Made by a program: the position numbers and the translations under genes | NCBI GenBank assembly: GCA_029240075.1 | Contig: JARBTQ010000007.1 | Span: 28,750 to 92,749 of the forward strand | Direction of reading: 5' to 3' | DNA length: 64,000 nt | Source: Chlamydiales bacterium | GTDB lineage: Bacteria; Chlamydiota; Chlamydiia; Chlamydiales; JARBTQ01 | The notes under the pieces: model-generated | What the model was told of the DNA's origin: nothing | The model's database searches: none | What the model saw: only the letters and a program-made list of their open reading frames with translations | In this document: positions 32,288 through 50,668 of the stretch, in pieces | Layout of the letters: every line of letters starts with the position of its first letter | How positions within the stretch are numbered: the stretch's first letter is position 1

Positions 32288-32899
32288 TTAATTACCTTTA
32301 AAATAGTAGATCAAGCCGTTAAGAAAGCTATTAACAGCCAGCATTAATACAAGCAATCCCATTAGTCGTTCACAAGCAGCTATACCCGCTTTTCCTAATA
32401 ATTTACTAAGTTGGGGTAGGAAATATAGAATGATTGTGGACAGTAACCATGCAACAAGTAGAGAAGAGGTTAATAAAGTAACGCTAGGCAGTTGTTGTGC
32501 ATAGATCATGATCTGCGCGATTACACCAGAACCTGCGATAAGGGGAACTGCAATAGGCACAATAAAAGGCTCTTTGTCTTGTGTATTAGCGGAAGTATTG
32601 CTAGTTGCATGGGCTGGAAAGATAATACTTAAAGCTGTAAAGAACAGCACAATAGCTCCCGAAAAATAAAGTGTAGACTTTGAAATTTGCAAGAAGTTTA
32701 ATATATATTCGCCAGTGAATTGCGCTATAAGCATCACTATCAAAGCGATTACCATTTCTCGGATGATCACTGCTTTCTGCCGTTTAACATCTAGTCCTTT
32801 GATTAGTGTTAAGATAACAGGAATAACCCCTACAGCGTCCATGATCAAAAAGAGCTGGGTAGTCATGGAGATAAAAGAGTCTAAATCGAACGTTTCCAT
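32288..32899 (-). CDS. MarC-family (UPF0056) integral membrane protein, copy 2
   Basis: FLIMDAVGVIPVILTL near the N-terminus, about 6 hydrophobic segments, and a PIAVPLIAGSG motif. Confidence 0.8.
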   Translation of the reverse strand: METFDLDSFISMTTQLFLIMDAVGVIPVILTLIKGLDVKRQKAVIIREMVIALIVMLIAQFTGEYILNFLQISKSTLYFSGAIVLFFTALSIIFPAHATSNTSANTQDKEPFIVPIAVPLIAGSGVIAQIMIYAQQLPSVTLLTSSLLVAWLLSTIILYFLPQLSKLLGKAGIAACERLMGLLVLMLAVNSFLNGLIYYFKGN

Positions 32900-32920
32900 A
32901 GGTGCAACCTTTCTATTTGA

Positions 32921-33541
32921 TTAATGAGGGAGTGTATGCATGAAAGCGGTAAAAGAGCGCAATCCTTCCGTTAGCATTTGTATAGACAGAAGTAATAGCA
33001 CTAGTCCCATTAATCTTTCTGCAGCATTAACTCCTTTATCTCCTAGAAGGTGGTGGATATGGGAAGCTAAAAATAGTATAACCCCGGAAAGGAGCCAGGC
33101 AATACAAATTCCTATATAAGTATCGTTCCAAAAACCAGTAGATTGGCTTGAATAGACTATGATAGCAGCTAAAGCAGATGGACCAACTAGAAGTGGTGTA
33201 GCGATAGGTACTAAAAAAGGTTGCTCTTTATCTTCTACGTTATCAGGGATATGCCCCATGTTAGGGAAAATCATTTTTAATGATTTCAATAAAAGAATAA
33301 TTCCACCTGAAATTTGCACCGCAGATTCTTGAATGTGCAGCGTTGCTAAAAGTTTGCCCCCTATTGAATAAAAGACAACCATGAAGATAAAAGCGATGCA
33401 GAGCTCTCTCAACATAATACGATTATGGGAATCAATAGGAGCGGGCTTCAAAGCTAAGATGAAGGCGGGGATATGTCCTACAGAATTCATTATAAGAAAT
33501 AAGGATATTGCTATATAAAAAGTGGAAAAAGAGTGCTCCAT
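32921..33541 (-). CDS. MarC-family (UPF0056) integral membrane protein, copy 1
   Basis: LFLIMNSVGHIPAFILAL, PIATPLLVGPS, and a C-terminal AAERLMGLVLLLLSIQM that parallels ACERLMGLLVLMLAVNS of the neighbour. The two are tandem paralogs. Confidence 0.8.
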   Translation of the reverse strand: MEHSFSTFYIAISLFLIMNSVGHIPAFILALKPAPIDSHNRIMLRELCIAFIFMVVFYSIGGKLLATLHIQESAVQISGGIILLLKSLKMIFPNMGHIPDNVEDKEQPFLVPIATPLLVGPSALAAIIVYSSQSTGFWNDTYIGICIAWLLSGVILFLASHIHHLLGDKGVNAAERLMGLVLLLLSIQMLTEGLRSFTAFMHTLPH

Positions 33542-33781
33542 TGGTAACCTTTTGAGTTAGTCATTGCCAAAAAAATTGGACAATTGGGTTCAGTTCATCT
33601 AATTTATAGGCCTATCTTAATAAGCATAAACTGCTTAAACGTTTTAATCTCTGTTTATAAAGTTTAAAAAGGCCTCAATATAGGAAGAAAAATCCTAAAT
33701 TTTTTCATATGTCACTAAAATGGTATGGCATTTGCTAATTTTAAGCAACCTGTCGAACTTCTCATATAAAAAGTGATCGTA

Positions 33782-34933
33782 ATGAAAAATAAGCTTCTCT
33801 ATACCCTATCTTTTGTGGTGTCGGTAGGAATTCTCGGATATGCTCTCTACTGCTGGTATATTTCTAAAAATCTAGAAATAACAGACAATGCTTATGTCTG
33901 TGGTCATATTCTAGATATCAGTCCCCGAGTTTCCGGGCACATTAAAGTCGTTCCTTTTAAAGAATTTGAGTACGTAGAAGAAGGACAGATCATATTTGAA
34001 CTAGATCAAACATCTTACATGATTGAACATGCCAAAAGTTTAGCTAATCTAGAACTTACAATTCGGCAAATTTTAGAGTTAGAAAAACAGATACAACAAC
34101 TCCGCTCAGTTTCTCGTATAAAATTAACTAATTTAGAGCGTTGCCAACGGGATTTTTGCAAAAGAGAGGAATTAATCGGCATAAAGGCAATATCACAGGA
34201 GGAATTTGAGCATGCACAGTCTAACCTGGATACCGCTTTAGCTGACTACCATCAGACAAATGCTCAACTGAGTGCTTTAAAGGTGAAAAGAGGTGACTTG
34301 GAGATTCAGTATCACCCGCAGATTCTACTTGCTAAACAACAGTTGAAACAAGCCTCCTTGAATCTCCTTTATTGCCAGGTAAGGGCCCCTACAAGTGGGT
34401 ATATAGCAAAAAAAGAGCTTGACCTTGGAGAATGGGTATCCCCCCAATCTAAAGGAATTAGCTTAGTTCCATTGGATAGAGTATGGGTAGAAGCAAACTT
34501 AAAAGAAACGCAGTTATCTAATATTCGCGTAGGGCAACATGTAGAATTGTTTTCAGATCTATACAATAAAAAGGTCAAATTCAAGGGGACAGTAGAAGCT
34601 ATCAGCATAGGAACAGGTTCCGTCTTCTCTCTATTGCCCCCTCAAAATGCTACAGGTAATTGGATTAAAGTGGTTCAACGCGTTCCTGTAAGGGTTAAAT
34701 TAGATGCTGAACAATTAAAACAATACCCATTGTTGGTTGGATTGTCAATTTCTGCTACATTTAATACTTCATCTCAGCCTTTAGAAAAATTGATCGTTCC
34801 GCAGCAATACCATGTAAGCGATGAAGTCTCATCTTTAAAGATATATCCAATACAGAGTGTAGAGCAAAATATTGAAAATTTAGTTGATAATTTGATTAAA
34901 CAAGCTAGTCTATACTCCCATTTTGTGGAGTAA
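33782..34933 (+). CDS. HlyD/EmrA-family membrane fusion protein
   Basis: N-terminal TM, TDNAYVCGHILDISPRVSGHI, a coiled-coil centre, VRAPTSGYIAKK, VWVEANLKETQL, and LLPPQNATGNWIKVVQRVPVRV. Confidence 0.9.
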   Translation: MKNKLLYTLSFVVSVGILGYALYCWYISKNLEITDNAYVCGHILDISPRVSGHIKVVPFKEFEYVEEGQIIFELDQTSYMIEHAKSLANLELTIRQILELEKQIQQLRSVSRIKLTNLERCQRDFCKREELIGIKAISQEEFEHAQSNLDTALADYHQTNAQLSALKVKRGDLEIQYHPQILLAKQQLKQASLNLLYCQVRAPTSGYIAKKELDLGEWVSPQSKGISLVPLDRVWVEANLKETQLSNIRVGQHVELFSDLYNKKVKFKGTVEAISIGTGSVFSLLPPQNATGNWIKVVQRVPVRVKLDAEQLKQYPLLVGLSISATFNTSSQPLEKLIVPQQYHVSDEVSSLKIYPIQSVEQNIENLVDNLIKQASLYSHFVE

Positions 34934-36465
34934 TGATGTCAAATATTCAACCAACCCTTTTAGATAAAAAATCGCTCTTAATATTGACAATAGGAATGGG
35001 ATTAGGGACCTTTATCCAAGTTCTAGACAGTTCTATCGCCAATGTTTCGATTCCCGCTATAGCTGGCAGTTTAGGGGCTAGTGTTCATGAAGCTTCATGG
35101 GTTATTACATCGTTTGTGGTAAGTAATGCAGTTGTTTTGCCTTTATCTGGTTGGCTATCAAAGCGATTTGGTGAAGTAAACCTTTTCATCTACTCTACAA
35201 TTTTATTTGCTTTAACATCATGGCTGTGTGCAGAGGCTGCTAGTCTCTATATGCTTATACTATTTAGAATTTTACAAGGTGCTGTAGCTGGATCACTAAT
35301 TCCACTTTCCCAAAGTATTTTATTAGCAAACTATCCTCCTGAAAAAAAAGGGCTTGCCTTAGGGTTGTGGTCTATGGTTGTGATTATTGCGCCTATTGTA
35401 GGTCCTGTTTTGGGAGGATGGATCACAGACTATCATGGATGGCCCTGGATTTTTTATATTAATATTCCTTTAGGATTTTTATCAGCATTCTTAACATACA
35501 ATGTACTAGGGCATAAAAAAATACCAGCCGATGAAAGGCCTATTGATAAAATAGGGTTTGTTATTCTTGTTATTGCTGTTAGTAGCCTACAGATCTTTTT
35601 AGATAAAGGGAATGAATTGGACTGGTTTGATTCCCACTTTATTAGTGGATTGTGCATCATTTCGATTGTTGCATTTATAGCTTTTATAGCGTGGGAACTC
35701 TATTACCCTTATCCTATAGTTAATTTATCATTCTTTAAAAAAAGAAGCTTTGTAGTTGGTTCTGTTTTGACAAGCTTGGGTTTCATGATGTTTTTTGGTA
35801 GTACTGTCTTGGTTCCAGTGTGGCTACAAACACAAATGAATTACACAGCTTTTTGGGCAGGAATTGCCTTAGCTCCGATTGGAGCATTTTCGCTTATTCT
35901 TATGCCTTTGATTGGCAAAAATTTGCATAGAATTAATTTACAGCTAGTGATTAGTTTTAGCTTTCTAATATTTGCCATAACTTTTCATTGGTTTAGCCTG
36001 TTAAATACTCAGGCAAGTCTCGCACAAATTATTACCCCTCGTCTGTTTCAAGGAATTGCTCTGGCTTGTTTTTTTCTCCCTCTGACGACTATGTCCTTAT
36101 CGGAATTACCAAAGGAAGAAACTGCTAGTGCAGCAGGAGTTTTCAATTTTGTACGCTTAGTAATTGGAGGAGGAGGAGGAGCTTCCATCTTCGTAACGAT
36201 TTGGTCTCGCCGACAAACTGTCCACCAAAATTTTCTTTGGGAAATTGCCAGTAAAAATCGTTCTTACTTAAACAGTAGTCTTTTAACGGAAGAAAATCCC
36301 TTAAGTAACCAGATCATAGCTCACCTGATTGCAAAGCAGAGTGGCATGTTAGCTATTAATGATATCTTTTACCTTTGTTCTATCCTATCTATAGTGTTGG
36401 CTGTTGGGGTATGGATTGCTCGCCCTAAAACAAATCATGTACAGCATCAGGTAAGTGCTGAATAG
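34933..36465 (+). CDS. EmrB/QacA-type (DHA2, 14-TMS) MFS efflux transporter
   Basis: LDSSIANVSIPAIAGSLGAS, VLPLSGWLSKRFG, FRILQGAVAGSLIPLSQS, and many TM segments. Its start overlaps the upstream stop (TAATG). Confidence 0.9.
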   Translation: MMSNIQPTLLDKKSLLILTIGMGLGTFIQVLDSSIANVSIPAIAGSLGASVHEASWVITSFVVSNAVVLPLSGWLSKRFGEVNLFIYSTILFALTSWLCAEAASLYMLILFRILQGAVAGSLIPLSQSILLANYPPEKKGLALGLWSMVVIIAPIVGPVLGGWITDYHGWPWIFYINIPLGFLSAFLTYNVLGHKKIPADERPIDKIGFVILVIAVSSLQIFLDKGNELDWFDSHFISGLCIISIVAFIAFIAWELYYPYPIVNLSFFKKRSFVVGSVLTSLGFMMFFGSTVLVPVWLQTQMNYTAFWAGIALAPIGAFSLILMPLIGKNLHRINLQLVISFSFLIFAITFHWFSLLNTQASLAQIITPRLFQGIALACFFLPLTTMSLSELPKEETASAAGVFNFVRLVIGGGGGASIFVTIWSRRQTVHQNFLWEIASKNRSYLNSSLLTEENPLSNQIIAHLIAKQSGMLAINDIFYLCSILSIVLAVGVWIARPKTNHVQHQVSAE

Positions 36466-36672: not shown

Positions 36673-37782
36673 ATGGCTGACGATTTTCAAGATAAAACAG
36701 AAGATGCAAGTTCCAAAAAATTAAGCGATTCCCGTCGTAAAGGAATGGTTGCGCAGTCTCGCGATTTTACATCGGGAACACTTCTGTTAACGAGTGTACT
36801 ACTTTTGTATTTCTTCTCCAGTTTTATGTTTGATTATCTGCAACAAATAACAGTAGGGGTATTAACACACCTTGATGAACCTTTCAGTGAAGTAGAGGCG
36901 ATCACTTACTGGCTAAGACAAGGACTTTTAACCAATTTAGCAATGATGGCTCCTTTCCTAGGCCCACTTTTGATAATCGGGGTGGGTATTAATGTTTACC
37001 AGGTGGGCTTTGTTGTTTCTACAGAAGGAATTACGCCAAAATGGAACAAACTTAATATATTTGATGTAAATAATTTGAAAAAGTATTTCAGCCTACAAGC
37101 ATGGATGCGACTTGTATTAGGCTTAATTAAAATGACGATTATAGCTGTTATCAGTTACGTAATGATCACAAATTCTTACGTCCAATTTATGGAGCTTATG
37201 GAAGCTCCTGTAAGACAAATGTTTGCTTATATATGCAACGAGTTCTTTTGGTTGGCTGTTGTTCTTTCTATACTGCTGCTGGTTCTTGGAATTGTCGATT
37301 TTACCTTCCAAAAGTGGAAGTTCATGCAAGATATGAAGATGACCAAACAAGAGGTTAAAGAGGAACATAGGCAATCTGAAGGGGATCCAAAAGTTAAGTC
37401 AAAGATGCGTTCGATGATGCAATCGATGTTATCTAATCGTATGAAAGCTAATATTCCAAAAGCAGATGTAATTATTGCCAACCCAGTACACTTTGCAATA
37501 GCTATCAAATATGACGCTGAGAAGATGGCTGCGCCGATTTGTGTTGCTAAAGGGGTTGAAAATATGGCTATCATGATCAAAGAGCTTGCCAAGGAGCATA
37601 AAGTGCCAATTGTAGAAAATCCCCCTTTAGCCCGTGCTTTATATAAAGTTGTAGACGTAGGAGTCGCAATTCCTGCTAATTTTTATCATGCTGTTGCTGA
37701 AGTGCTAGCTTACGTTTATCGACTCAATGATAAGTTAGGCAAGCAGCACGCTAGACCAGAAAATCCTTCACATAAGATATAA
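36673..37782 (+). CDS. flhB: FlhB/SctU-family type III export switch protein (flagellar-type by context)
   Basis: N-terminal KTEDASSKKLSDSRRKGMVAQSRDF, four TM segments, an autocleavage-site region ANPVHFAIAIKY (NPVH instead of NPTH), and a C-terminal VAKGVENMAIMIKELAKEHKVPIVENPPLARALY. Confidence 0.85.
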   Translation: MADDFQDKTEDASSKKLSDSRRKGMVAQSRDFTSGTLLLTSVLLLYFFSSFMFDYLQQITVGVLTHLDEPFSEVEAITYWLRQGLLTNLAMMAPFLGPLLIIGVGINVYQVGFVVSTEGITPKWNKLNIFDVNNLKKYFSLQAWMRLVLGLIKMTIIAVISYVMITNSYVQFMELMEAPVRQMFAYICNEFFWLAVVLSILLLVLGIVDFTFQKWKFMQDMKMTKQEVKEEHRQSEGDPKVKSKMRSMMQSMLSNRMKANIPKADVIIANPVHFAIAIKYDAEKMAAPICVAKGVENMAIMIKELAKEHKVPIVENPPLARALYKVVDVGVAIPANFYHAVAEVLAYVYRLNDKLGKQHARPENPSHKI

Positions 37783-37798
37783 GAAGTAAGGAGAGTTC

Positions 37799-39886
37799 AT
37801 GCTAGGTAGTTTGAGTCAAAAAGTCAATAAATTGTACGAGTATAGCGATGTTGTATTGGCTTTATCAGTTGTCTGCATTGTTTTATTACTTGTAATTCCA
37901 TTACCTCCTATTCTACTTGATGTACTACTGTCAATTAGTATTGTGCTCTCAGTTACAACACTACTTATGACGATGTATATCCATGAGTCCTTAGATTTTT
38001 CATCTTTTCCATCATTACTGCTGTTTTTAACACTGTTTCGGTTATCGTTAAATATAGCTTCAACACGTATGATTTTGGCCGAAGCACAGGCTGGTGATAT
38101 TATCGAGACATTCGGTAACTTTGTTACTGGAGGAAATCAAGTAGTTGGAGCTATTATATTTATCCTTTTAACTATCGTAAATTTTGTGGTAATCACCAAA
38201 GGTTCAGGGCGTGTAGCTGAGGTTGCAGCTCGTTTTACCCTAGATGCAATGCCAGGGAAACAAATGTCAATTGATGCAGACCTGAATGCTGGATTAATTG
38301 ATGAGCAAGAGGCAAAAGTACGACGTGAGAAAATTGCGTTAGAAGCAGACTTTTATGGGGCTATGGATGGTGCGTCCAAATTTGTACGAGGAGATGCTAT
38401 TGCGGGTATCATCATGACAATCGTCAATGTTATTGGTGGATTTATCATCGGAATAGCCATGAAGGGGATGAATTGGAAAGAGGCCTTGCACACTTATACA
38501 ACTTTGACAGTTGGTGATGGCTTAGTTTCTCAAATTCCTTCTCTACTAATCTCTGTAGGTGCTGGTATTCTTGTGACTAGAGCTTCTTCTAAAGAAAAAC
38601 TCAGCAATATGATTCATCAGCAAGTATTTAATAACCCTAGAGTTTTATACTTAACTTCTATTGTTGTTTTTGTCTTAGGTATGGTTCCTGGAATGCCTTT
38701 AATGGTTATTACCCCTATTTCAATAGCTATAGGCTTGTATGCCTATTCCTTACAAAAAATGAGCCATACTGAATTAGGATCTTTGGACACAACATTAGCT
38801 AAGACCCAAGAAGTGGAACAGGCTCAGCAACAAGCTGAAACAGTTGAAAAAGCCCTATTTATCGATCCAATGGAGATAGAGCTGGGTTATACGCTCATAC
38901 CTTTAGTGGATCAAAGCCAAGGCGGTGACCTTCTTAATCGAATAACTGTTATTCGTCGTCAGATAGCATCTGAGTTGGGGTTAATTGTGCCACCTATACG
39001 TATAAGAGATAATATGTCACTTGACCCTAATTCTTATATTATCAAAATAAAGGGGATTGATGTAGCTTCTGGAACTTTACAAATCGATAGTTATCTTGCA
39101 ATGAACCCTGGAAATGTAAGCAAACCTATACCAGGGATTAAGACAACAGAGCCAGCATTTGGACTGCCTGCTATTTGGATTAGTGCTGGGCAAAAAGAAA
39201 ACGCCGAATTATTAGGTTATACCGTAGTAGATACATTATCTGTACTTGCTACCCATTTAACAGAAGTTATACACGTGTATGCACATGAATTATTGAACCG
39301 ACAAGAAGTGTCTCGTCTAATTGATAACGCAAAAACTTATGCTCCAGCTGTGATAGAAGAACTTATACCTGCAAGATTGAGCCTAGGGCAAGTTGTAAAA
39401 GTACAACAAAATTTATTGCGTGAGCGGATTCCTATCCGCGATATCGTCACTATCCTGGAGATTTTAGCAGATCAGAGTTCACGCACAACTGATACAGATA
39501 TTCTTACAGAGTATGTGAGGCAAGGTCTTGCACGCAGTATATCAAAGCAGTATGGCGGTGATAAAAAAATTCTATATGCCATTACTTTTGATCCAAAAGT
39601 AGAGCAGATGATGGCCGAAAGTGTGCAAAAGAGCGATTTTGGGCACCGTATAGTTTTAAGACCAACAACTACACAAAAAATTATTGATGAATTAGATAGA
39701 ACAATACAAGAAAGCGCCAAGCAAGGGTTACAGCCTATTGTACTTACCTCCCCATCCATTCGTCTATACGTCAAGCATCTTATAGAAAGAGGATTACCTA
39801 GATTACCGGTGGTATCCTTTAATGAAGTTGTATCTGAAGTTGAGATTCAAGCGGTTGGAGTTGTTTCTAGCGAAGTGCTCATTTAA
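37799..39886 (+). CDS. flhA: FlhA/SctV-family type III export gate protein (flagellar-type by context)
   Basis: FPSLLLFLTLFRLSLNIASTR, VVITKGSGRVAEVAARFTLDAMPGKQMSIDADLNAGLIDEQEA, YGAMDGASKFVRGDAIAG, and a large cytoplasmic C-domain. A strong SD (AAGGAG) precedes the ATG. Confidence 0.9.
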   Translation: MLGSLSQKVNKLYEYSDVVLALSVVCIVLLLVIPLPPILLDVLLSISIVLSVTTLLMTMYIHESLDFSSFPSLLLFLTLFRLSLNIASTRMILAEAQAGDIIETFGNFVTGGNQVVGAIIFILLTIVNFVVITKGSGRVAEVAARFTLDAMPGKQMSIDADLNAGLIDEQEAKVRREKIALEADFYGAMDGASKFVRGDAIAGIIMTIVNVIGGFIIGIAMKGMNWKEALHTYTTLTVGDGLVSQIPSLLISVGAGILVTRASSKEKLSNMIHQQVFNNPRVLYLTSIVVFVLGMVPGMPLMVITPISIAIGLYAYSLQKMSHTELGSLDTTLAKTQEVEQAQQQAETVEKALFIDPMEIELGYTLIPLVDQSQGGDLLNRITVIRRQIASELGLIVPPIRIRDNMSLDPNSYIIKIKGIDVASGTLQIDSYLAMNPGNVSKPIPGIKTTEPAFGLPAIWISAGQKENAELLGYTVVDTLSVLATHLTEVIHVYAHELLNRQEVSRLIDNAKTYAPAVIEELIPARLSLGQVVKVQQNLLRERIPIRDIVTILEILADQSSRTTDTDILTEYVRQGLARSISKQYGGDKKILYAITFDPKVEQMMAESVQKSDFGHRIVLRPTTTQKIIDELDRTIQESAKQGLQPIVLTSPSIRLYVKHLIERGLPRLPVVSFNEVVSEVEIQAVGVVSSEVLI

Positions 39887-39924
39887 AATAGTAGTTCAGG
39901 GCCTGATACACAAAGGAAAAGAAG

Positions 39925-41466
39925 ATGATTATAAAAAAATATCGAGCTAGTAGTGTAGAAGAAGCTCAAAGTCTTGTTAGAAAGGAATTAGGGCCAGACG
40001 CTATCATTTTAACTACAAGCTATCTAAAGGAAAATGGTCTAAAAGGATTCTTTTCAACTAGTAAAGTAGAAGTAACAGCAGCAGTTGAAGAAGAAGAACT
40101 CGCAGCGTATCAAGCCAAGATCAACTTTCAAAGTGATGAACAACTTCTTTCCCAATTAAGGCAGGAACAGGCTTCACAGCTTCAAGATGAAGATAAGATG
40201 GTTACGCAAGGGGGAGATCTTGTTAGCTTAAGCTCTGCAGCAAGAAAAAAAATACAAGCTGCAAATTCTGTAAGTCAAGACATTAACCACCTAGCTGCGT
40301 ATAAGCCAGTTGTAGGGAATGATAGTACAGTAGACGCTGCGGTTCAACAACCGTCAAAAGCTCAGGCAGAACATTTTATAAGATTAACACAGAACTTAGT
40401 AACTCAATTTGGTCAGGTAAATCAAGAGGAAGTTAGCAAGCCGGTTCAAAAGATAGTTTTTACCGAACCCTCTTTTGCTAACCATTCATCTACTTATGAA
40501 AAATCATTAGAAAACAAAGCCAACCCAATCAACGACTCAGTGCAAGATTTGATGGCTTTACGTAATATCATCAGAGAAGAGCTAAATTTAGTACAAAAGA
40601 ACGTAACTCCCACTTGGACAGATAAAGGGCTTGAAGGATCGGTTTTAAATTTTCTTTTAGATAAAGGTGTCAAACATTCTGTAGCTACAATGATAGAAGG
40701 ACGGATACATGAAGAATTTGGACCTGATTATATGGCACATACTGAATATGAAAAGTCTATTAAAATTAACTCTTTAAAAAGGGAGTTAGCTCGATTATTT
40801 AATGCGGGTAAAACAATTCAATTTCAAGAGAATCAACGTTCAGTAGTTGCTTTAGTCGGTGCAACTGGAGTCGGTAAGACAATGGCTGCTATGCGATTAG
40901 GATTAAGATACCAGCGATCATTGCGTAAGAAAGTAGCCATCATCAGCATAGACCCTTATCAGAATAAAAATGAAGAGTACCTCCTATCACTCATACCACC
41001 ACATAGTGATATTAATGTTATGATTGTTGAAAATATGGAAAGACTTAATAAAGCCTTAGAATCATTTGAGGACAAAGATTTAGTAATCATAGATACATCT
41101 AGCATTAATCCCTATGATGAATGCGCAATTGAAAATCTACAACAGTACCTTGAGACAATCGATGATCTCCAATTATTTTTGACACTGAGTGCGACAACAA
41201 AGGATGTTGATACTTACGGTATTATTAAATCTCTTTCAGTTCTTGAACCGCAAGGAATTATCATGACAAAATTGGACGAGACCATAGCTTATGGAATCTT
41301 AATAAATGTGTGCAATGTTGCAGCTCATCCAATTAGTTACGTGACTACAGGGAATGATATTAGCGAGGATCTCGTAGTTGCTGATAAACACGATTTAGCA
41401 CGTCGCTTGCTTGTTAAATATAATGATACACGCTCAAAGCACGTTAGAGAATTAGCTATGAAATAG
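39925..41466 (+). CDS. flhF: FlhF-type SRP-like GTPase with degenerate G2/G3/G5 motifs
   Basis: The FlhF-specific N-terminus MIIKKYRASSVEEAQSLVRKELGPDAIILTT. G1 is GATGVGKT and G4 is TKLDET. However, G2 is IDPYQ (expected TDTYR), G3 is DTSS (expected DTAG) and G5 is TTGND (expected GQ). Confidence 0.8.
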   Translation: MIIKKYRASSVEEAQSLVRKELGPDAIILTTSYLKENGLKGFFSTSKVEVTAAVEEEELAAYQAKINFQSDEQLLSQLRQEQASQLQDEDKMVTQGGDLVSLSSAARKKIQAANSVSQDINHLAAYKPVVGNDSTVDAAVQQPSKAQAEHFIRLTQNLVTQFGQVNQEEVSKPVQKIVFTEPSFANHSSTYEKSLENKANPINDSVQDLMALRNIIREELNLVQKNVTPTWTDKGLEGSVLNFLLDKGVKHSVATMIEGRIHEEFGPDYMAHTEYEKSIKINSLKRELARLFNAGKTIQFQENQRSVVALVGATGVGKTMAAMRLGLRYQRSLRKKVAIISIDPYQNKNEEYLLSLIPPHSDINVMIVENMERLNKALESFEDKDLVIIDTSSINPYDECAIENLQQYLETIDDLQLFLTLSATTKDVDTYGIIKSLSVLEPQGIIMTKLDETIAYGILINVCNVAAHPISYVTTGNDISEDLVVADKHDLARRLLVKYNDTRSKHVRELAMK

Positions 41467-41498
41467 AGTAGACTAAACAGTAGTAAGGAGCTCAATGA

Positions 41499-41822
41499 AT
41501 GGATAAACGTTATCTATTTAGTTTTGTTTTTTTAGTTACTTTAGCGACTACAGTGGCTGTAGCAGCTATAAGTATTTTTTTTCAACAACAGTTGATGTAC
41601 ACGGTAATTTACTCTTTAACAGCAATGTGGGTGATGGGGATCGTTAGTCAAATTATGGTTAAGCAGCTCTATATAAGTATTGTAAAGCCCTTAGAATTAT
41701 CTAAGTTAGAGGCTGCAAAAAACCAAGCAAATTCTTTAGATCTAAATATCAACGAAATAGAAGCTATTGATTCGGTTATAGAAGAAGCAGAAAAAAGTAC
41801 ATCAGCTAATTTAAAGAGATGA
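41499..41822 (+). CDS. small two-TM protein of unknown function in the flhG slot
   Basis: 107 aa. AAGGAG lies about 10 nt upstream of the ATG. It has two hydrophobic segments followed by an acidic, coiled tail. Confidence 0.55.
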   Translation: MDKRYLFSFVFLVTLATTVAVAAISIFFQQQLMYTVIYSLTAMWVMGIVSQIMVKQLYISIVKPLELSKLEAAKNQANSLDLNINEIEAIDSVIEEAEKSTSANLKR

Positions 41823-41995
41823 TTACTGAGGCTTAGTGGACAAACAAAATTTATTCTTAAAATGAAATAAAGAATTGCACTCTATTGACAGATTCCTATA
41901 ATGCACAAATATAGGCAGCCCTAAAAGAGGGGGTTAGCACACTTCACTGAAATTTCAGACGGTGTACTAGCAGTACTAATCACAATAACCGATGA

Positions 41996-42799
41996 ATGAA
42001 GGATGAGCAGATGGATGAACGTCTAGATCCATCAACAGTTCAAGCACTGTGGGCGGAATATAAGACTAAAGGATCTATAGCTGCAAGGGATCAAATAATC
42101 ACCAATTATTTGTACCTTGTTAAATGGGCCGTCAATAAATTGACTGCAGGCTTTCCTGCTCATGTTCAGTTTGATGATTTGTATTCACCAGGTGTCATTG
42201 GACTGATCAAGGCTGTTGATAAGTTTGACCCTAGTCTTAAAAATAAGTTTGAGACCTACGCTCTTTTAGTTATAAGAGGAGCTATTTTAGATGAAATTCG
42301 TGAACTAGATTGGGTTCCTCGTAGTGTGCATAAAAAAGCTAACCAAGTGGCTCAAGCGCAGGATGAGTTATCACAAAAGCTTGGTCGAGAACCTACAGAT
42401 CAAGAATTAGCAAAGCATCTGAAGGTTGATGCAGAAGAATTAGAGGAGATGTTAGCTTATATAAAGCCAGCAGTTCTTATTCCTTTAAATGCCCCACAAG
42501 ACGAAGAGAGTGAACAGGCTACAATCGCTGAGCGCATTCCAGATGAAAAGAGCCCTTCAAGCTTTGATGTAGCAGACTATAATGAATTTAAAAAATTATT
42601 AGAAGACGCTATTGGTGGTCTACCAGAACAAGAACGAATTGTACTTGTGCTGTATTATTTTGAAAATATGATGCTCAAAGAGATCGGGCAAATCATCAAT
42701 GTGAGTGAATCTAGAGTTTCTCAAATTCATACAAAAGCTCTCATGCGCTTACGCAAACGCTTAGAATCTGTAAAAGCTGAATTTGCTGATATTTTTTAG
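41996..42799 (+). CDS. fliA: sigma-28 (FliA/WhiG-type) RNA polymerase sigma factor
   Basis: Region 2: DDLYSPGVIGLIKAVDKFDP..FETYALLVIRGAILDEIRELDWVPR. Region 4: LPEQERIVLVLYYFENMMLKEIGQIINVSESRVSQIHTKALMRLR. Confidence 0.9.
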   Translation: MKDEQMDERLDPSTVQALWAEYKTKGSIAARDQIITNYLYLVKWAVNKLTAGFPAHVQFDDLYSPGVIGLIKAVDKFDPSLKNKFETYALLVIRGAILDEIRELDWVPRSVHKKANQVAQAQDELSQKLGREPTDQELAKHLKVDAEELEEMLAYIKPAVLIPLNAPQDEESEQATIAERIPDEKSPSSFDVADYNEFKKLLEDAIGGLPEQERIVLVLYYFENMMLKEIGQIINVSESRVSQIHTKALMRLRKRLESVKAEFADIF

Positions 42800-43083: not shown

Positions 43084-43990
43084 TTACGCAATGTCGTAGG
43101 GTTTGTGAATTTTTACTAATCTCTGATAAGCCATAAGGTTTGCTTTAATGGCGAGCTTATATTTAAGAGCAAAGTGATTCAAACTTGTTTTAATTTTTAA
43201 AAATTTGAGCTGGCAATAAGCTATCAGAGATGCAAAAATATGGTTTTTCTGAGAACGGACTACCTTAGTAGGAGATTTTGCAAGGCTAGCATTCTACTTA
43301 ATTGAGATGAAAAGTTTCTTTATATCATAGTGAATATACTTTAGATTGTCTTTAGAGATAAACTACTTGTCAGCAAGTACGTAACTAAATTTAATTGGGT
43401 TCTTTACAGCTTTGTTTAAAAGATCTCGAAATAATTCATTCCTAGTTTTACTAGATTTTCCTTTCTCTTTTTTAATTCCTATCTCGCCATAGTGTAAATC
43501 TTTAGTAATTACTTCATAACTGATAGGTAAAGATGCTTTTCCCTGAACAATCAAACCAGAAACAATATTGATCCCCTTATCCCTTTAACACAGCGTCCTT
43601 TTGCGTGGCTGTAATACCAATTATTGACTTCATTTACATCTGTATATGGTTTTTCCTCTATACAATCATCTATGACTAAAAATCCCTCAAAACATGTCTT
43701 AATTTGGCGTATTTTTGGTTTTAGAACTTCCTATAGCAGCTTTGCATTTCCTTCATAGTTATTCAAAAAAAGAATCACTTTATCATAACTGACCTCGTAA
43801 TCGAGCATAGAAGCTAATCCTGTAGCTGAGCCTGCTGATTTTGGCAAATAAGATAGTCGTTGTAAATGTCTAAAAGTTGTAATGCCATTATAATACCCTT
43901 TAGTAGTAGACAAAGGTATTTTACTGACCTTAAATATACCAGGCAATCTCAGTTTGCGTAAGGCGGATATATGAGTTTTTGACTTATTGA
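43084..43990 (-). mobile_element. decayed IS transposase gene (DDE-type, IS701/IS4-like by motif impression), no intact ORF
   Basis: The minus-strand reading gives ...GLASMLDYEVSYDKVILFL..NAKLL, then TAG (43731-43733), then EVLKPKIRQ..FLVIDDCIEEKPY. A frameshift follows at the imperfect 8-nt tandem ATCCCCTT/ATCCCTTT (43571-43586). It continues GINIVSGLIVQGK..VLADK, then TAG (43363-43365, where W is expected), then F... through to ...NHIFASLIAYCQLKFLK... and the stop at 43084. Confidence 0.6.
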
Positions 43991-44022
43991 GCTTTTTTCA
44001 ATCTTTAACGCTGAAAAGTTGG

Positions 44023-44261: not shown

Positions 44262-46007
44262 TCATGGTTTTTGTTGTACTATTAGCAAATCAAACATACT
44301 AAGTTCATCTTTTCCATTAGAAAGTACAAGGGAAATGTTTGAGTTTTGCAGTAAAGGTAATGATTTGCAGATCTGTATGTGATTAGCCTCTTCATCAAAA
44401 GACGGGGTCCAATTATTATTGATATTGCAGTAAACAGGACATAATTTCTTACGGAGCTCTAATTTAGTAGGCTCTAAAAAGTTCAGATCTTCCATAAAAG
44501 CAGTATCTTGTTCAAAGCTTTGGATCCGTTTTTCTAATAATACAATACTTTCGTTAAGGTAAGTTAAGTTTTGTTCCATTAGACCACTGTCATTACCCCT
44601 ATAATTTTGTATAAATGGTAGCTTAGAGATAAAATCAACCATATCAGATTTTATTTCGACTTTTAATTTGTCATTATTAAGGAAGGGGATATCAAAAGTG
44701 TGTTTTAAATCATCAGAATGACTAGCCGAATCTAAAAAAGAGTTATTTAATTTTTGGATATTCATAAGCTCTAATAGATCCTTTGAGGATACGAAATAGG
44801 GGGTTAAGCAGTATTTTTTAATTTTCTGGCTATTTGTATCGATAGCTGTAAACTCTAAATCTTCTAAATTTTTGTAGGAGTTTAAGATAATATAAGATCC
44901 TTGTGGAGATAAGGTTACTGGGCTTCCTGGTTTGTAACCGCACTGTGCGACTAAATCTGGAACAATTATGTTTTCTTCATAGGAACCTATATAGTCTTCT
45001 TTCAAGACATTCCAACGACCAGTTTTATCTTGTTTGATTGTATATATCCAATCTTCCCCGCTCTGAGGGTCCCACACTTCACCGATTTTAAAACAGGTCT
45101 CCTTAACACTATTTTCTATTTCTTCATAGGATCTAAAATTATTGCTTTTACTTGTTAAACCAAATTGGGTGCAACTTTCATTGTTTTGTATATTTTCAAG
45201 GTTATTGATTGCAGTAATCATTTGTCTAAGTAAATGATTTAAAATGGCGGCTAGACAATCAAGCTCTGCATTCATCTCAATTTGTTTAGTCTTCGTTAAG
45301 GTAGGAGCAACATTATTCTGTGTTATTTTTGCAACCTGAGCCATATTTGCCAGTATGTTCTTAGAATAAACTAGAGAAATTTTAAAGTTTTGAATAATGA
45401 GAGCTAAATTGTTATTTTCAAAAAAACTATTTTGTACTCCTCTTAATAAGTGTTGTAGGTTGACAAAATCACTCAATTTAAATCTGTGAATTGGTAGTTG
45501 GGTTTCAAATAAGTGGCTTAAAGTATAAAAAACTTGTTGGATTAAAGCTTTATTGAATTTTAGTGGATATGCAGTACTATGATCATTTTGAGATAGGCCC
45601 TTACTAATAATTAGCAGAGCTCTTAATTGCTTTGTAAGTTCTATGTAAAAGTTAACAGGTCTAAAAGTATGCATTTTGCAGAACAAGTCCAAATCTTCTG
45701 TTAACTTTTCTATAACCAAGGATGCGTCAACACAGATAGAACTGATAAATGGGACCGCGCTAGGTAATACTTTAATGCGATTCCAGTGTTTTAAGAGACT
45801 TTTAACGTTAGGTTTTGAAAATAACAAATCATACGATGCATATTGCTCAATAAAATTTTTAATGATTTTTTCTGATCTTTCTATGACTAAGCGCCCCGTC
45901 GTATAAAGGCTACGATTGCATTGTGTAACCGTAGTCAAGTCCTTTGCCTCTAAATAATTCAAAATTTTTTGACTAATCTCTGGAGGTAAATTATTTATCG
46001 TACTCAT
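44262..46007 (-). CDS. F-box domain protein
   Basis: N-terminal INNLPPEISQKILNYLEAKDLTTVTQCNRSLY matches the F-box consensus LPxEIxxxILxxLxxxDL...V. I recognise nothing in the remaining roughly 530 aa. Confidence 0.75.
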   Translation of the reverse strand: MSTINNLPPEISQKILNYLEAKDLTTVTQCNRSLYTTGRLVIERSEKIIKNFIEQYASYDLLFSKPNVKSLLKHWNRIKVLPSAVPFISSICVDASLVIEKLTEDLDLFCKMHTFRPVNFYIELTKQLRALLIISKGLSQNDHSTAYPLKFNKALIQQVFYTLSHLFETQLPIHRFKLSDFVNLQHLLRGVQNSFFENNNLALIIQNFKISLVYSKNILANMAQVAKITQNNVAPTLTKTKQIEMNAELDCLAAILNHLLRQMITAINNLENIQNNESCTQFGLTSKSNNFRSYEEIENSVKETCFKIGEVWDPQSGEDWIYTIKQDKTGRWNVLKEDYIGSYEENIIVPDLVAQCGYKPGSPVTLSPQGSYIILNSYKNLEDLEFTAIDTNSQKIKKYCLTPYFVSSKDLLELMNIQKLNNSFLDSASHSDDLKHTFDIPFLNNDKLKVEIKSDMVDFISKLPFIQNYRGNDSGLMEQNLTYLNESIVLLEKRIQSFEQDTAFMEDLNFLEPTKLELRKKLCPVYCNINNNWTPSFDEEANHIQICKSLPLLQNSNISLVLSNGKDELSMFDLLIVQQKP

Positions 46008-46824: not shown

Positions 46825-48909
46825 ATGACAAAACCTGGAACTTATTTACCTGTGCTCCAAGGCATTCAGAAGAATAAAGATTTTCATCGACTTGAAACAC
46901 TTTTTCAACCAGATGTGCTTCAACAAATGGCCGAAGATGAAAGATCTTTATTATCTTCTTTACTGCTCGATCAGATAACAGTTGTGGACAACTGTAATGA
47001 AGAGAGCATTGCGGAGATTTTAGAGAGAGCTTTTGCCATAATGCCAGATGCTTTCGATCTCGTTTATCGTCAAAGCCTCATCGGATTAGAGCAAGGAAAA
47101 AAAGCGAATCAAAATAACCTCTTATTGCTTGCTAGGCAACGGATTCAGCATGCCGTTAAGCTAGAGCCAACTAATATTCATGCATGGGCTACTTATGCCA
47201 AGATTTTGCTATGCCTGGTTTCCAGAACACAGCAACCTGAATACTTTGAGGAGGTCCAGGCAGCTTTAAGTGAAGCTAAGAAATTAGCTATTGGAAATGA
47301 GGATCTTTTAGTACTTGTTAAAAGTTTGCAAGCTACCTACTATTTCTATAGTGCACAAGTTTCAGAAGAACCCATCGATTATATTCAGGCGCTGGAAATC
47401 TATAACAGCATAGAAACTCAAATTGGTCCCGATGCTAATTTTTTGATAGATTATACTCGTTGTATCATGGCCTTATACAATTTAGTAGGTAGCATAGGTT
47501 ATCTACAAAAAGCGGCTGTTATCGGGAAAAAAATAGCTTATCACTATCCACAAGTTGCTAAATATTGGTATGAGATAGGTCTTATCTATCAGCAATATTA
47601 TCGAATGACAGAAGAACACCTTTATTTCCAAATTGCTGATGAATCGTTTAAAAAAGCGGAAGAATTGGGAGAAAATAGTCTAGAATTATGGCTTAATTGG
47701 GGAATACTGCACTTTGACTTAGCTCAGCAAAAGGAAACCATAGAAATTTTAGACTCTAGCGTTCGTAAATTATCGCTTGCAGCTCAGTTTAGTCCTCATG
47801 AACCACAAGTTATTGCAGCATATACGCAGGCAATCTCTTTAATGGGAACTTTATGCGATAGTTTGGAGTTTTTAAATCAAGCAAAGCTTAAGATTCAAAC
47901 AGCGGTAGAAGCATATCCTACAGATTCCTACATTAGTTATGCCTATGCAACTTGTTTGGCAGCTTGGGGAGAGTACTTTAGCGAAGATGAGTTTTATTTT
48001 GACGCTGTGGAAATATTAAAACAAGCATTAAATGTTCCTGTAAAAAACACACAAATACACTCTAAACTATGGTATCAGCTTGGGAATCTGTACTATGGAA
48101 TAGGGGATATGCTTAACGACTCCTACTATATAGAGCAGGCTATTATTAGCTATCAAAGGGCGGTTAGCCTAGAGCGTGACCGCGCCAAGATCTGGACTAA
48201 TTGGGGCGTTGCATTGGCAAAAATGGGCCAGTTAACCCTTGAAAAATGTTATTTCGAACTCGCTATAGAGCGTTTCCAGCATGTTATTTATACTCTTTGT
48301 GCAGGGGAAGAGAACGCAGATTTAGAAACACTTTATCAATATGGCTCTGTTCTTGATCTACTAGGGGATTTTGATCAGGATGAAGAGGACCATTATAATT
48401 TAGCTGTAGGTGTCTTAGAACGAGTCGTAGAGCAGGATCCAGAACATTTACAAGCACGTCATAGCCTAGCTTTAGCCCTTTTTCATAGAGGAGAAGTTAC
48501 AGCTGAAATTGTAGATTTTCAGGATGCTGCAGAGCATTTTCAAAAGTTAGCAGAATTAAATCCTGAGGATGATGTTCTATGGCATGACTGGGGGGTAACG
48601 CTGCTACATTTAGCTGCTTTTGTAGATGATACGTCCCATACTTTTAATTTTGAACAGGTTGTTATTGATGCTGAATCAAAGCTACTAGAAGCTGCTAAAT
48701 TAGGAAATATTTATGTGTTTTACCATTTAGCATGTTTATATGCTTTGAAGGAGCAATACGAAGACGCTATCAAATGGCTTACACATGCAGATCATTATGA
48801 AGCATTACCTTCAATTGATGAGCTTATGAGTGACGATTGGTTAGAAGATTTACGGGAAACAGATCTTTTTCGAAATTTTATAGCTCATCTAAAAATAAGT
48901 AATGAGTAA
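46825..48909 (+). CDS. large TPR-repeat protein
   Basis: 34-aa TPR-like units recur throughout (AWATYAKILL, YWYEIGLIYQQY, LWLNWGILHFDL, LWYQLGNLYYGIGD, IWTNWGVALAKMG, LWHDWGVTLLHL). Confidence 0.75.
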   Translation: MTKPGTYLPVLQGIQKNKDFHRLETLFQPDVLQQMAEDERSLLSSLLLDQITVVDNCNEESIAEILERAFAIMPDAFDLVYRQSLIGLEQGKKANQNNLLLLARQRIQHAVKLEPTNIHAWATYAKILLCLVSRTQQPEYFEEVQAALSEAKKLAIGNEDLLVLVKSLQATYYFYSAQVSEEPIDYIQALEIYNSIETQIGPDANFLIDYTRCIMALYNLVGSIGYLQKAAVIGKKIAYHYPQVAKYWYEIGLIYQQYYRMTEEHLYFQIADESFKKAEELGENSLELWLNWGILHFDLAQQKETIEILDSSVRKLSLAAQFSPHEPQVIAAYTQAISLMGTLCDSLEFLNQAKLKIQTAVEAYPTDSYISYAYATCLAAWGEYFSEDEFYFDAVEILKQALNVPVKNTQIHSKLWYQLGNLYYGIGDMLNDSYYIEQAIISYQRAVSLERDRAKIWTNWGVALAKMGQLTLEKCYFELAIERFQHVIYTLCAGEENADLETLYQYGSVLDLLGDFDQDEEDHYNLAVGVLERVVEQDPEHLQARHSLALALFHRGEVTAEIVDFQDAAEHFQKLAELNPEDDVLWHDWGVTLLHLAAFVDDTSHTFNFEQVVIDAESKLLEAAKLGNIYVFYHLACLYALKEQYEDAIKWLTHADHYEALPSIDELMSDDWLEDLRETDLFRNFIAHLKISNE

Positions 48910-49210: not shown

Positions 49211-50668
49211 CTAAGGTTTAGTAAAGTCTTGCTTTGAAAAAAAAATGCCCCATGCGTTGTAAAAACCTTTATACCATTTGCTAATAGTGCTTTCGGTAGT
49301 AGCTTTGGGATGGGATTTATTATTCCATATTTCAATTCGTCCATTTGAAGTTGCTGCTGCAAGGCAAGCCTCATCTTCATCAGTATTGAAGCTAAGAGTC
49401 AGTTTAGCTACACCTTCTTTTGTATTGAAAGTGTGAAGAAGTGTTAAGTTTGTCAAATCCCAAACCTGAATTAACTTTTCACTACAGAAACTTGTGAAAA
49501 GATAGTTACATTCAGATGCCATCACGGTAGCTCGAATAATCTTTTTAGAAAGGCCACCTTGCAGATCTAAGATGCTAAGAGTATTGCTTGATAGAAGGCA
49601 AAGAGCATGATTGTTACGGACTACTAGATCTTTAATAAAAAAATCTGTAGTTAAGACATCATTTTCTTGTGGGATGCGATCTAGCTTATGTTCAATTTCT
49701 AAACTTTTTGCTCCAAGGATAAGGATTTTATGATTAATTGTAATAATGATTCTTTCGGTGTTAGAGGCAAGCTTCCAACTTGTTATCTTGTAATCGGATG
49801 ATACTGTTTTCGAACATAAGATATCCCCTGTCTGAGAATCATAACTTCTAACTATACTACTAACAGTTTTATCTTGATCAAAACTTAAAAAGCCTATGAT
49901 TAATTTGTGGTCTGAAAAGCTGATACCCATACATTTTAAATCGTAGCTCGATTCAGTAATATCAAAATTTTTTAGAGATAAACTACTTAGATTAATAACA
50001 GTGATTGTTTTTTGCTGCGCAGTGCTTACGGCAAATGTAGCTATAAGGTTTTTGGCATCATTAAGTGCATAAAAGTTTGCAGCAGATTGATGAGGAAATT
50101 CCTTAACAATACGATCAAATTCATATTCTTCTTTGGCATCCACTGTTAAAGGAATCGTATGAAAGCTCAATATATCTGAACTAGTATCAGTATAGCCTCT
50201 ATCTGTATCAAACTTTTCTCCTATAAGGAGATACTTATTAGTAAAGTGAAGAAATGGCGATTGATGAGTTCTATACTCATAAAATCTTTCTGTAGTATCT
50301 GCTATTGAATGTAGAGTAACGTTTGTTCTAGGACAATTGAATGTAGGGGAATTTGTATATCGGGTATAGACAATATGGGATTTTGAACAACTTAGATGCA
50401 TTATAGACGATTCCACTTCTTCAGTAAGTAATGAACCAGGTCTTAGGAGCCGAACAATGAGCCTAGTGGAACTAGATAGCATCTCTTTAACTATACAGTT
50501 CCATTGCTTACAGACGCAACTTGCATTAGCTTTATTGGGTAATGTTAATCTGTTAAATATATCTTTAATAATATCAGATGGTAAACAAACAACTGGTATT
50601 ATCTGCTGGTCAAATTTCAAAACTTGGTTTGTTTGTTCTGGATCAAATCGATTAGTAGGAAACGTCAT
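49211..50668 (-). CDS. F-box protein with a beta-propeller (WD40-like) C-terminal region
   Basis: The F-box is CLPSDIIKDIFNRLTLPNKANASCVCKQWNCIV. Later units are WD-like: SIVRSYDSQTGDIL, NTLSILDLQGG, KLIQVWDLTNLTLLHTF and SNGRIEIWNN. Confidence 0.65.
   Translation of the reverse strand: MTFPTNRFDPEQTNQVLKFDQQIIPVVCLPSDIIKDIFNRLTLPNKANASCVCKQWNCIVKEMLSSSTRLIVRLLRPGSLLTEEVESSIMHLSCSKSHIVYTRYTNSPTFNCPRTNVTLHSIADTTERFYEYRTHQSPFLHFTNKYLLIGEKFDTDRGYTDTSSDILSFHTIPLTVDAKEEYEFDRIVKEFPHQSAANFYALNDAKNLIATFAVSTAQQKTITVINLSSLSLKNFDITESSYDLKCMGISFSDHKLIIGFLSFDQDKTVSSIVRSYDSQTGDILCSKTVSSDYKITSWKLASNTERIIITINHKILILGAKSLEIEHKLDRIPQENDVLTTDFFIKDLVVRNNHALCLLSSNTLSILDLQGGLSKKIIRATVMASECNYLFTSFCSEKLIQVWDLTNLTLLHTFNTKEGVAKLTLSFNTDEDEACLAAATSNGRIEIWNNKSHPKATTESTISKWYKGFYNAWGIFFSKQDFTKP

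Follow-up and report, generated by a model that had tools for sequence, protein, structure and literature searches.

Chlamydiae were long held to be non-motile obligate intracellular bacteria, and the description of flagellar genes in some of them in 2017 came as a surprise and supported a motile chlamydial ancestor. The single-cell genome SCGC AB-751-O23 carries 20-28 flagellar genes (Collingro et al., 2017, ISME J, PMC5604735). The same authors regarded chlamydial flagellar genes as ancestral and vertically inherited (PMC5604735), and such gene sets have since been extended to more metagenome-assembled genomes (MAGs) (PMC8242063). In Chlamydia trachomatis, flhA (CT060) adjoins the sigma-28 gene fliA (CT061) (PMC10597470), and the FlhA of Chlamydiaceae is markedly divergent (PMC5604735). 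Here we analyze a stretch of 64,000 nucleotides from a Chlamydiales bacterium (assembly GCA_029240075.1, contig JARBTQ010000007.1, positions 28,750 to 92,749 of the forward strand), hereafter the window, which carries five genes in the order flhB-flhA-flhF-small open reading frame (ORF)-fliA. An earlier reading of the window made without database searches (the sequence-only reading) had taken them for a stand-alone flagellar-type module in an otherwise non-flagellate genome context, possibly a fuller relic of the C. trachomatis pair, whose adjacency it had given correctly (CT060-CT061; PMC10597470).

We estimate at about three in four the probability that an uncultured environmental chlamydia, most likely one with a flagellum, has here its flhB-flhA-flhF-(FlgV-like)-fliA operon and carries its other flagellar genes in separate small clusters outside this region. 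The sequence shows the identity and intactness of the genes, their flagellar and not injectisome type, and the conservation of the unit and of part of its synteny across chlamydial lineages; the rest of the apparatus in this organism and the operon structure are what we infer to be most likely. The locus is a new example of the chlamydial flagellar gene set already described in 2017 and not a new system.

The five ORFs (36673-42799) are co-directional, tightly packed and intact; the coordinates of the sequence-only reading are exact, and its calls for flhB, flhA, flhF and fliA are accurate by both Pfam and NCBIfam. All lie on the forward strand. The first gene, flhB (36673..37782, +), encodes a flagellar type III export switch protein of 369 aa that scores above the cut-off of TIGR00328, and flhA (37799..39886, +) a flagellar export gate protein of 695 aa that scores above that of TIGR01398. 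They are followed by flhF (39925..41466, +; 513 aa), the gene of a GTPase of the signal recognition particle (SRP) type whose N-terminus is typical of FlhF and whose G2 and G3 motifs depart from the norm, by the gene of a small membrane protein (41499..41822, +; 107 aa), a predicted two-helix hairpin with an acidic cytoplasmic tail that is FlgV-like by position and architecture, and by fliA (41996..42799, +; 267 aa), which encodes a sigma-28 RNA polymerase sigma factor of the FliA/WhiG family. The successive intergenic gaps measure 16, 38, 32 and 173 nucleotides. Those among the first four genes (16-38 nucleotides) suggest co-transcription, and the 173-nucleotide gap 5' of fliA leaves room for a second promoter. 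The GC content of the cluster is 37-39%, against a window mean of ~35%.

From what is known of these families, FlhB and FlhA would be the substrate-switching and gate subunits of a flagellar type III export apparatus. FlhF, as an SRP-type GTPase, would nucleate the basal body or set its position; in this copy the catalytic site is degenerate, and the cluster has no gene for an FlhG partner. A basal-body accessory in the FlgV position is the role that we propose for the 107-aa two-helix protein, and FliA would activate late genes, flagellin among them.

All five cluster proteins have their nearest relatives among chlamydiae. Among the related loci, the complete flhB-flhA-flhF-small ORF-fliA order is found in an ENA contig (L002), in a chlamydial contig of assembly GCA_041294345.1 (L004) and in a JGI contig bearing the AB-751-O23 FlhF. 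Part of it, cut by contig or locus ends, is found in the AB-751-O23 contig (L003), in the GTDB MAG 'Chlamydiales bacterium Mix_sand11' (L005), in a 77%-related Logan contig (L016) and in L017. By exact protein matches, the window itself corresponds to roughly positions 28.8-92.8 kb of a JGI metagenome contig of 93,924 bp (3300042923, Ga0456365_0000444), and its arrangement was assembled independently from Logan run SRR35179801. A scan of GTDB genomes with an alignment of chlamydial FlhF returned one chlamydial MAG and three Firmicutes, and a scan of JGI metagenomes with an alignment of the small ORF returned two short contigs; the contig of the window was among the hits of neither. In L004, flhB (6456-7537) is split into overlapping ORFs of 63 and 309 aa, owing to a frameshift or an assembly error.

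In all related loci the five-gene unit is flanked by housekeeping genes and not by other flagellar genes. The contig was read over ~71 kb (the 64-kb window with ~6 kb on its left and ~1 kb on its right), by a Pfam scan of ORFs of at least 120 aa and a phmmer scan of all ORFs of at least 35 aa with 46 E. coli and 13 chlamydial seeds from flagellar and chemotaxis regions. Neither fliF/G/M/N, fliPQR or fliI nor any rod, hook, motAB or flagellin gene was found in the window and its flanks, and the two scans agree with the earlier statement that no further flagellar gene lies within the 64 kb. Since the stand-alone unit is the normal arrangement in flagellum-encoding chlamydiae, the lack of rod, hook, ring and fliPQR genes in 64 kb is uninformative on flagellation. 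The 'otherwise non-flagellate' context is not supported as a distinguishing feature either, as the identical unit stands isolated among housekeeping genes in flagellum-encoding chlamydiae too.

Where are flagellins encoded in these organisms? Two lineages, that of AB-751-O23 and L004, have a flagellin gene 7-8.5 kb downstream of the unit, after a PLD gene (in L004 it begins at 21331). Searches with the AB-751-O23 flagellin as query and with a profile retrieved ~17 chlamydial-type flagellins. One of them has fliF-G-H-I-J a few kb off (L024, SRR29270390), others stand with fliW, flgL and flgK beside a NiFe hydrogenase (L022, ERR2391723), and three flagellin genes lie among sugar-metabolism genes in L012. 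A YjbH-family gene precedes the flagellin gene in L024 and also in L011-L014, and a gene for a conserved ~180-aa protein follows it in L022 and L024.

The sequence-only reading had assigned FlhB and FlhA to the flagellar type and not to the injectisome proteins SctU and SctV, and the profile scores bear it out: both pass the flagellar cut-offs and fail those of the injectisome. These are the NCBIfam equivalog cut-offs, of 349.25 bits for TIGR00328, 358 for TIGR01404, 772.1 for TIGR01398 and 692.25 for TIGR01399. FlhB, a clear member of Pfam Bac_export_2 (E 5e-119), reaches 383.6 bits against TIGR00328 and only 311.2 against the SctU model TIGR01404; against solved structures it scores 196-210 bits with flagellar FlhB and 89 bits with SpaS. 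It is 52% identical to the chlamydial FlhB of L002, and its TIGR00328 score exceeds that of the L002 protein (347.2). The autocleavage loop reads NPVH (residues 270-273), as had been noted; its Asn, Pro and His are kept. The third position varies elsewhere: it gives NPIH in L002 and L004 and NPEH in the best-scoring solved flagellar FlhB (PDB 8z5s). Because of these variants we regard the third position as free to vary; NPVH in place of NPTH is typical of the chlamydial lineage and not a sign of decay.

FlhA covers positions 1-656 of the 657 of the Pfam FHIPEP profile (E 1e-269). It scores 874.7 bits against TIGR01398, whereas its 647.9 bits against the SctV model TIGR01399 fall short of the cut-off. 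Solved flagellar FlhA chains match at 497-570 bits and full-length SctV chains at 350-464. The C-terminal domain matches solved flagellar FlhA C-terminal domains at 225-357 bits, against 129 bits for 6wa6, a 387-residue 'Low calcium response locus protein D' fragment that we take to be Chlamydia pneumoniae CdsV. The TIGR01398 score of the window protein compares with 860-872 in three chlamydial relatives including the flagellum-encoding lineage, and its identity to chlamydial FlhA proteins, that of the AB-751-O23 lineage among them (67-71%), equals the identity between those lineages. The gate residues R94, R147, R154, D158, K203, D208 and D249 (E. coli numbering) are all kept. Of three residues of the chaperone-docking pocket, F459 and T490 are kept and D456 is replaced by E in every chlamydial copy; we presume the charged gate residues and the pocket (Salmonella D456, F459 and T490) to have their usual functional roles here. 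Against NF004571 (PRK05910; 584 positions), presumably the model of the relic FlhA of Chlamydiaceae, the protein scores 318.5 bits, where 670 is the cut-off, with a match confined to residues 22-323. Judged from these comparisons, the flagellar assignment of FlhB and FlhA is secure, and neither protein bears a sign of decay or relaxation.

FlhF is the one member of the unit that looks unusual. Its SRP54 GTPase domain spans residues 306-496 (Pfam), its best solved relatives are the FlhF structures 8r9r and 2px0, and the FlhF-specific models all outrank Ffh and FtsY. The family-specific N-terminus on which the earlier assignment had rested is real: the motif MIIKKY..A...EEA....ELG.DA.ILTT is common to the window protein and to chlamydial and Firmicute FlhFs. 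The closest proteins are chlamydial FlhFs, including that of Chlamydiales bacterium SCGC AB-751-O23, at 31-35% identity. Against TIGR03499 the window protein scores 131.2 bits and fails the cut-off of 174.15. Among four chlamydial relatives, those of the AB-751-O23 lineage (137.4), L004 (139.3) and L002 (153.7) fail as well, and that of L005 (183.0) passes. Because three of these four also fall below the cut-off, the divergence of FlhF is largely lineage-wide.

The nucleotide-binding motifs show what is particular to this copy. G1 (GATGVGKT) and G4 (TKLD) are intact. G2 (residues ~343-346) reads DPYQ, against DTYR in reference FlhFs and D-x-x-K-x-GAREQ in the chlamydial relatives, and G3 (residues ~390-394) reads DTSSI, where all other aligned chlamydial copies have DT[ASG]G, usually followed by R. 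The combination of G2 DPYQ and G3 DTSS is unique among 14 aligned chlamydial-type FlhFs. This pattern suggests that the window FlhF may bind GTP and hydrolyze it poorly or not at all. FlhG is an ATPase that normally stimulates the GTPase activity of FlhF, and none of the chlamydial clusters contains flhG; its absence may be the cause of the relaxed catalytic motifs of FlhF.

The fourth ORF had been placed by the sequence-only reading in an flhG slot. It is not FlhG; it belongs to a conserved two-transmembrane (2-TM) family in the FlgV position. A decayed FlhG is likewise ruled out, as the ORF belongs to its own conserved family. No Pfam or NCBIfam family matches the 107-aa protein. Homologues with 39-42% identity lie between flhF and fliA in L002, L003, L004, L005, L016 and L017, and another lies directly 5' of fliA in L018, a contig of 1.4 kb. 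Out of 1.84 billion proteins, only 32 cluster representatives belong to the family. Nearly all measure 90-140 aa, and they share an N-terminus of the form MD+R, a first hydrophobic helix F..VF.FTL.ST..., a second one TVLYSLATMW..GI.SQ, and a tail that is acidic and contains (N)L.EVE.ID. The AlphaFold model of the window protein predicts a helix at 3-27, a turn and a helix at 32-106, with a mean pLDDT (the predicted local distance difference test score) of 87.6; a Foldseek search of the PDB with this model returned nothing meaningful. One source begins its gene call for the window copy at V19 (89 aa); the homologues align from M1.

FlgV (the BB0268 family) is a 2-TM protein encoded between flhF/flhG and the sigma-28 gene and reported from the PVC group (Planctomycetes, Verrucomicrobia, Chlamydiae), including Chlamydia (PMC11607428). 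In Campylobacter, Helicobacter and Borrelia it forms part of the basal body, and it is also reported from Firmicutes and spirochaetes (PMC11607428, PMC10655999), its genes lying 'without exceptions' inside flagellar superoperons (PMC11607428). Chlamydiae are not mentioned in the supplements of the former paper. FlgV (BB0268 / Cj0062c / HP1033b) resembles the chlamydial family in size (~100-160 aa), in its two TM helices and polar or acidic tail, and in its gene slot, flhF(/flhG)-sigma-28. Unlike Type-1 FlgV, which has a conserved arginine in TM2, the chlamydial family has a conserved S-Q pair there and no TM2 arginine in 29 of 29 members. Comparison with the Lachnospiraceae 2-TM proteins of the same slot, a set that holds no true Borrelia or Campylobacter FlgV sequence, gave no homology signal (hhalign probability 2%). 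Because of the missing arginine and the absence of a homology signal with the Lachnospiraceae proteins, we describe the protein as FlgV-like and do not call it FlgV.

The sigma factor matches Sigma70 regions 2, 3 and 4 in Pfam and passes TIGR02479 (FliA/WhiG) with 248.8 bits for a cut-off of 189.6; its top single model, NF004572 ('RNA polymerase sigma factor sigma-28'), gives 263 bits, below the cut-off of 378. Its identity to the fliA products of the other chlamydial clusters is 57-59%. A strict sigma-28 promoter pattern has no match in the window. Upstream of the flagellin gene of SCGC AB-751-O23 (L003 12345-12372) stands a near-consensus sigma-28 promoter, TAAAGTTT-N12-TTCGATAT, which fits the idea that the FliA of the cluster may drive late flagellar genes in chlamydiae.

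Upstream of the unit, two tandem genes of MarC-family membrane proteins (32288..33541, -; Pfam MarC) precede an efflux pair (33773..36465, +) made of an EmrA-like HlyD-family protein (HlyD_D23/HlyD_3) and an EmrB-like MFS protein (MFS_1). In the 47-kb JGI contig bearing the AB-751-O23 FlhF, a MarC gene lies directly 5' of flhB, and the MarC genes of the window are a remnant of this conserved synteny. The EmrAB-like pump reported earlier is present as an HlyD-family and 14-TMS MFS pair. It is not at this position in related loci; it is inserted between MarC and flhB and lies outside the flagellar unit. With the product of a TolC-like outer-membrane factor gene at 60536-62032 (-), 24 kb away, it could form a tripartite pump.

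Downstream, the decayed insertion sequence (IS) of the sequence-only reading is confirmed weakly. Four consecutive ORF fragments in three frames (43087..43997, -) make up an IS701-like (DDE_5) transposase remnant; joined, they score 22.4 bits (E 1e-4) against DDE_5, which falls short of its gathering score (27). Its two longest ORFs have no Pfam match singly, and blastn of the remnant against plasmids found nothing. Relatives have Sua5/YrdC at this place or, further along, the PLD gene and the flagellin gene. Beyond the remnant stand genes of F-box, TPR, F-box + WD40 and ankyrin proteins, at 44262-46007 (-), 46825-48909 (+), 49211-50668 (-) and 50939-53773 (+) respectively. These are candidate effectors of host interaction, of a kind typical in amoeba-associated chlamydiae.

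Elsewhere on the contig there are giant ORFs with no Pfam family, of 2096 aa at 54189-60479 (+) and of 2012 aa at L010 1506-7544, and a PhoB/OmpR-type response regulator gene at 12199-12897 (-) that has no adjoining histidine kinase gene. A tyrosyl-tRNA synthetase gene (L010 1-1238, contig ~22.7-24.0 kb) lies left of the window, ~43 kb from fliA. In C. trachomatis, tyrS (CT062) presumably comes directly after fliA (CT061), and its occurrence on the same contig here may be due to chance or be a vestige of former synteny. Scanning the window with Rfam and for tRNA genes gave no hit. The contig carries murB, murF and kdsA; these genes, the ~35% GC, the F-box, ankyrin and TPR proteins, the giant ORFs and the chlamydial relatives of the cluster fit an environmental chlamydia.

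Several observations weigh against the window unit being part of a complete flagellar gene set. The ~71 kb read contain no other flagellar or chemotaxis gene by Pfam or phmmer. The flagellin-bearing downstream region of two lineages is replaced here by the IS remnant and the F-box/TPR/ankyrin genes. FlhF lacks the G3 glycine and both the G2 and the G3 arginines. Together with the small protein and FliA, it also diverges slightly more than the corresponding proteins do between other lineages. A relaxed sigma-28 pattern finds three weak sites in the window against 1.8 expected, none of them convincing. Finally, no chlamydial-type flagellin was traced to the source metagenome, the five of five that we looked up, among them all three hits of JGI origin, coming from other samples; this negative carries little weight because the same profile search missed the known L004 flagellin.

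The likeliest alternative is a partial relic or a module put to another use, in an organism that would have lost its filament and most structural genes and kept the gate, a catalytically degenerate FlhF, the small protein and sigma-28 for non-flagellar secretion and developmental (late-gene) regulation. Such a relic would be intermediate between the flagellated marine chlamydiae and the Chlamydiaceae, where only flhA-fliA, fliI and fliF are kept. Besides the missing neighbours, the replaced syntenic flagellin region, the untraced flagellin and the G2 and G3 sequences that no other of the 14 chlamydial-type FlhFs shares, it has a precedent in the reduction seen in Chlamydiaceae, with the CT060-CT061 adjacency and the retention of fliI and fliF (PMC10597470, PMC5604735). 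We nevertheless hold it to be unlikely. FlhA and FlhB score at least as high against their TIGR models as the proteins of flagellum-encoding relatives and have their critical residues intact, and none of the five ORFs is disrupted. Nor does FlhA belong to the NF004571 type (318 bits against the cut-off of 670, with a match to the membrane domain only). A sub-cut-off FlhF is found in most chlamydial copies, that of the AB-751-O23 lineage included (137 bits), and an isolated unit is the normal arrangement in flagellum-encoding chlamydiae. The 'fuller relic' proposed earlier meets the same objections, and chlamydial flagellar genes are generally scattered in small clusters. A more specific version is a shade less probable again: a chlamydia midway in flagellar loss, with an intact gate, a GTPase-dead FlhF, the FlgV-like protein, sigma-28 and no filament, that would use them for non-motility secretion and developmental regulation. 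If true, it would be a missing intermediate that explains why Chlamydiaceae retain flhA beside fliA.

A recent horizontal transfer, with a flagellated bacterium outside the chlamydiae as donor, or a chimeric assembly, might be suspected from the IS remnant directly downstream and the efflux pair inserted upstream. We find it very improbable: each of the five proteins has its nearest relatives in chlamydiae, the GC content of the cluster matches its surroundings, the MarC synteny is common to another chlamydial lineage, the same structure was independently assembled in the Logan run, and chlamydial flagellar genes are ancestral and vertical according to Collingro et al. (PMC5604735). Least credible of all is that the FlhB/FlhA pair is an injectisome SctU/SctV with an associated sigma factor, for although all chlamydiae have a type III secretion system of the non-flagellar kind and the Bac_export_2 and FHIPEP families are common to both systems, the SctU and SctV models stay below their cut-offs while the flagellar ones pass, the FlhA C-terminal domain prefers flagellar FlhA (225-357 bits) to 6wa6 (129), and the genes are linked to FlhF, a gene in the FlgV position and sigma-28, none of which belongs to injectisome loci.

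As the flagellar operon of an environmental chlamydia, the reading we prefer, the contig adds one more deeply divergent lineage with a conserved flhB-flhA-flhF-x-fliA unit. The adjacency of flhA and fliA in Chlamydiaceae (CT060-CT061) is best read as an eroded remnant of the same ancestral operon. Current understanding is unchanged unless the rest of the apparatus proves missing. Three propositions become easier to test: that what the human pathogens retain as flhA-fliA is the stump of this operon, that a small 2-TM protein occupies the FlgV slot of chlamydial clusters, which lack FlhG, and that at least one lineage has an FlhF without canonical catalytic residues.

Of the described systems, the marine and environmental chlamydiae SCGC AB-751-O23, AG-110-M15 and AG-110-P3 (PMC5604735) have the same five-gene order as the window, with identities of 67% for FlhA, 58% for FliA, 31% for FlhF and 41% for the small protein. 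Both have MarC upstream, a unit apart from other flagellar clusters, low GC and eukaryote-like repeat proteins. The window differs in representing a deeply divergent separate lineage from a different metagenome, in the EmrAB-like pair inserted upstream and in the degenerate FlhF G3 (DTSS). Unlike the AB-751-O23 lineage, it has no flagellin gene within 10 kb downstream, where the IS remnant and effector-like genes stand instead. The marine sets comprise 20 or more further flagellar genes, whereas the contig of the window was read over ~71 kb.

The canonical superoperon of Firmicutes, spirochaetes, Campylobacterota, Pseudomonas and Vibrio has flhB, flhA, flhF and then fliA as in the window, and in two Lachnospiraceae loci (L007 and L008) a small 2-TM protein is encoded directly 5' of fliA, again as here. 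It also has flhG, which encodes a MinD-like ATPase, whereas the chlamydial unit is without flhG, upstream fliPQR, che genes and embedding in a superoperon. The remnants in Chlamydiaceae (CT060 flhA, CT061 fliA, CT717 fliI and CT719 fliF) share with the window the flhA-fliA linkage and the sigma-28 family. To our knowledge, Chlamydiaceae lack flhB and flhF. Their FlhA is divergent, whereas the proteins of the window are full-length and of the canonical flagellar type.

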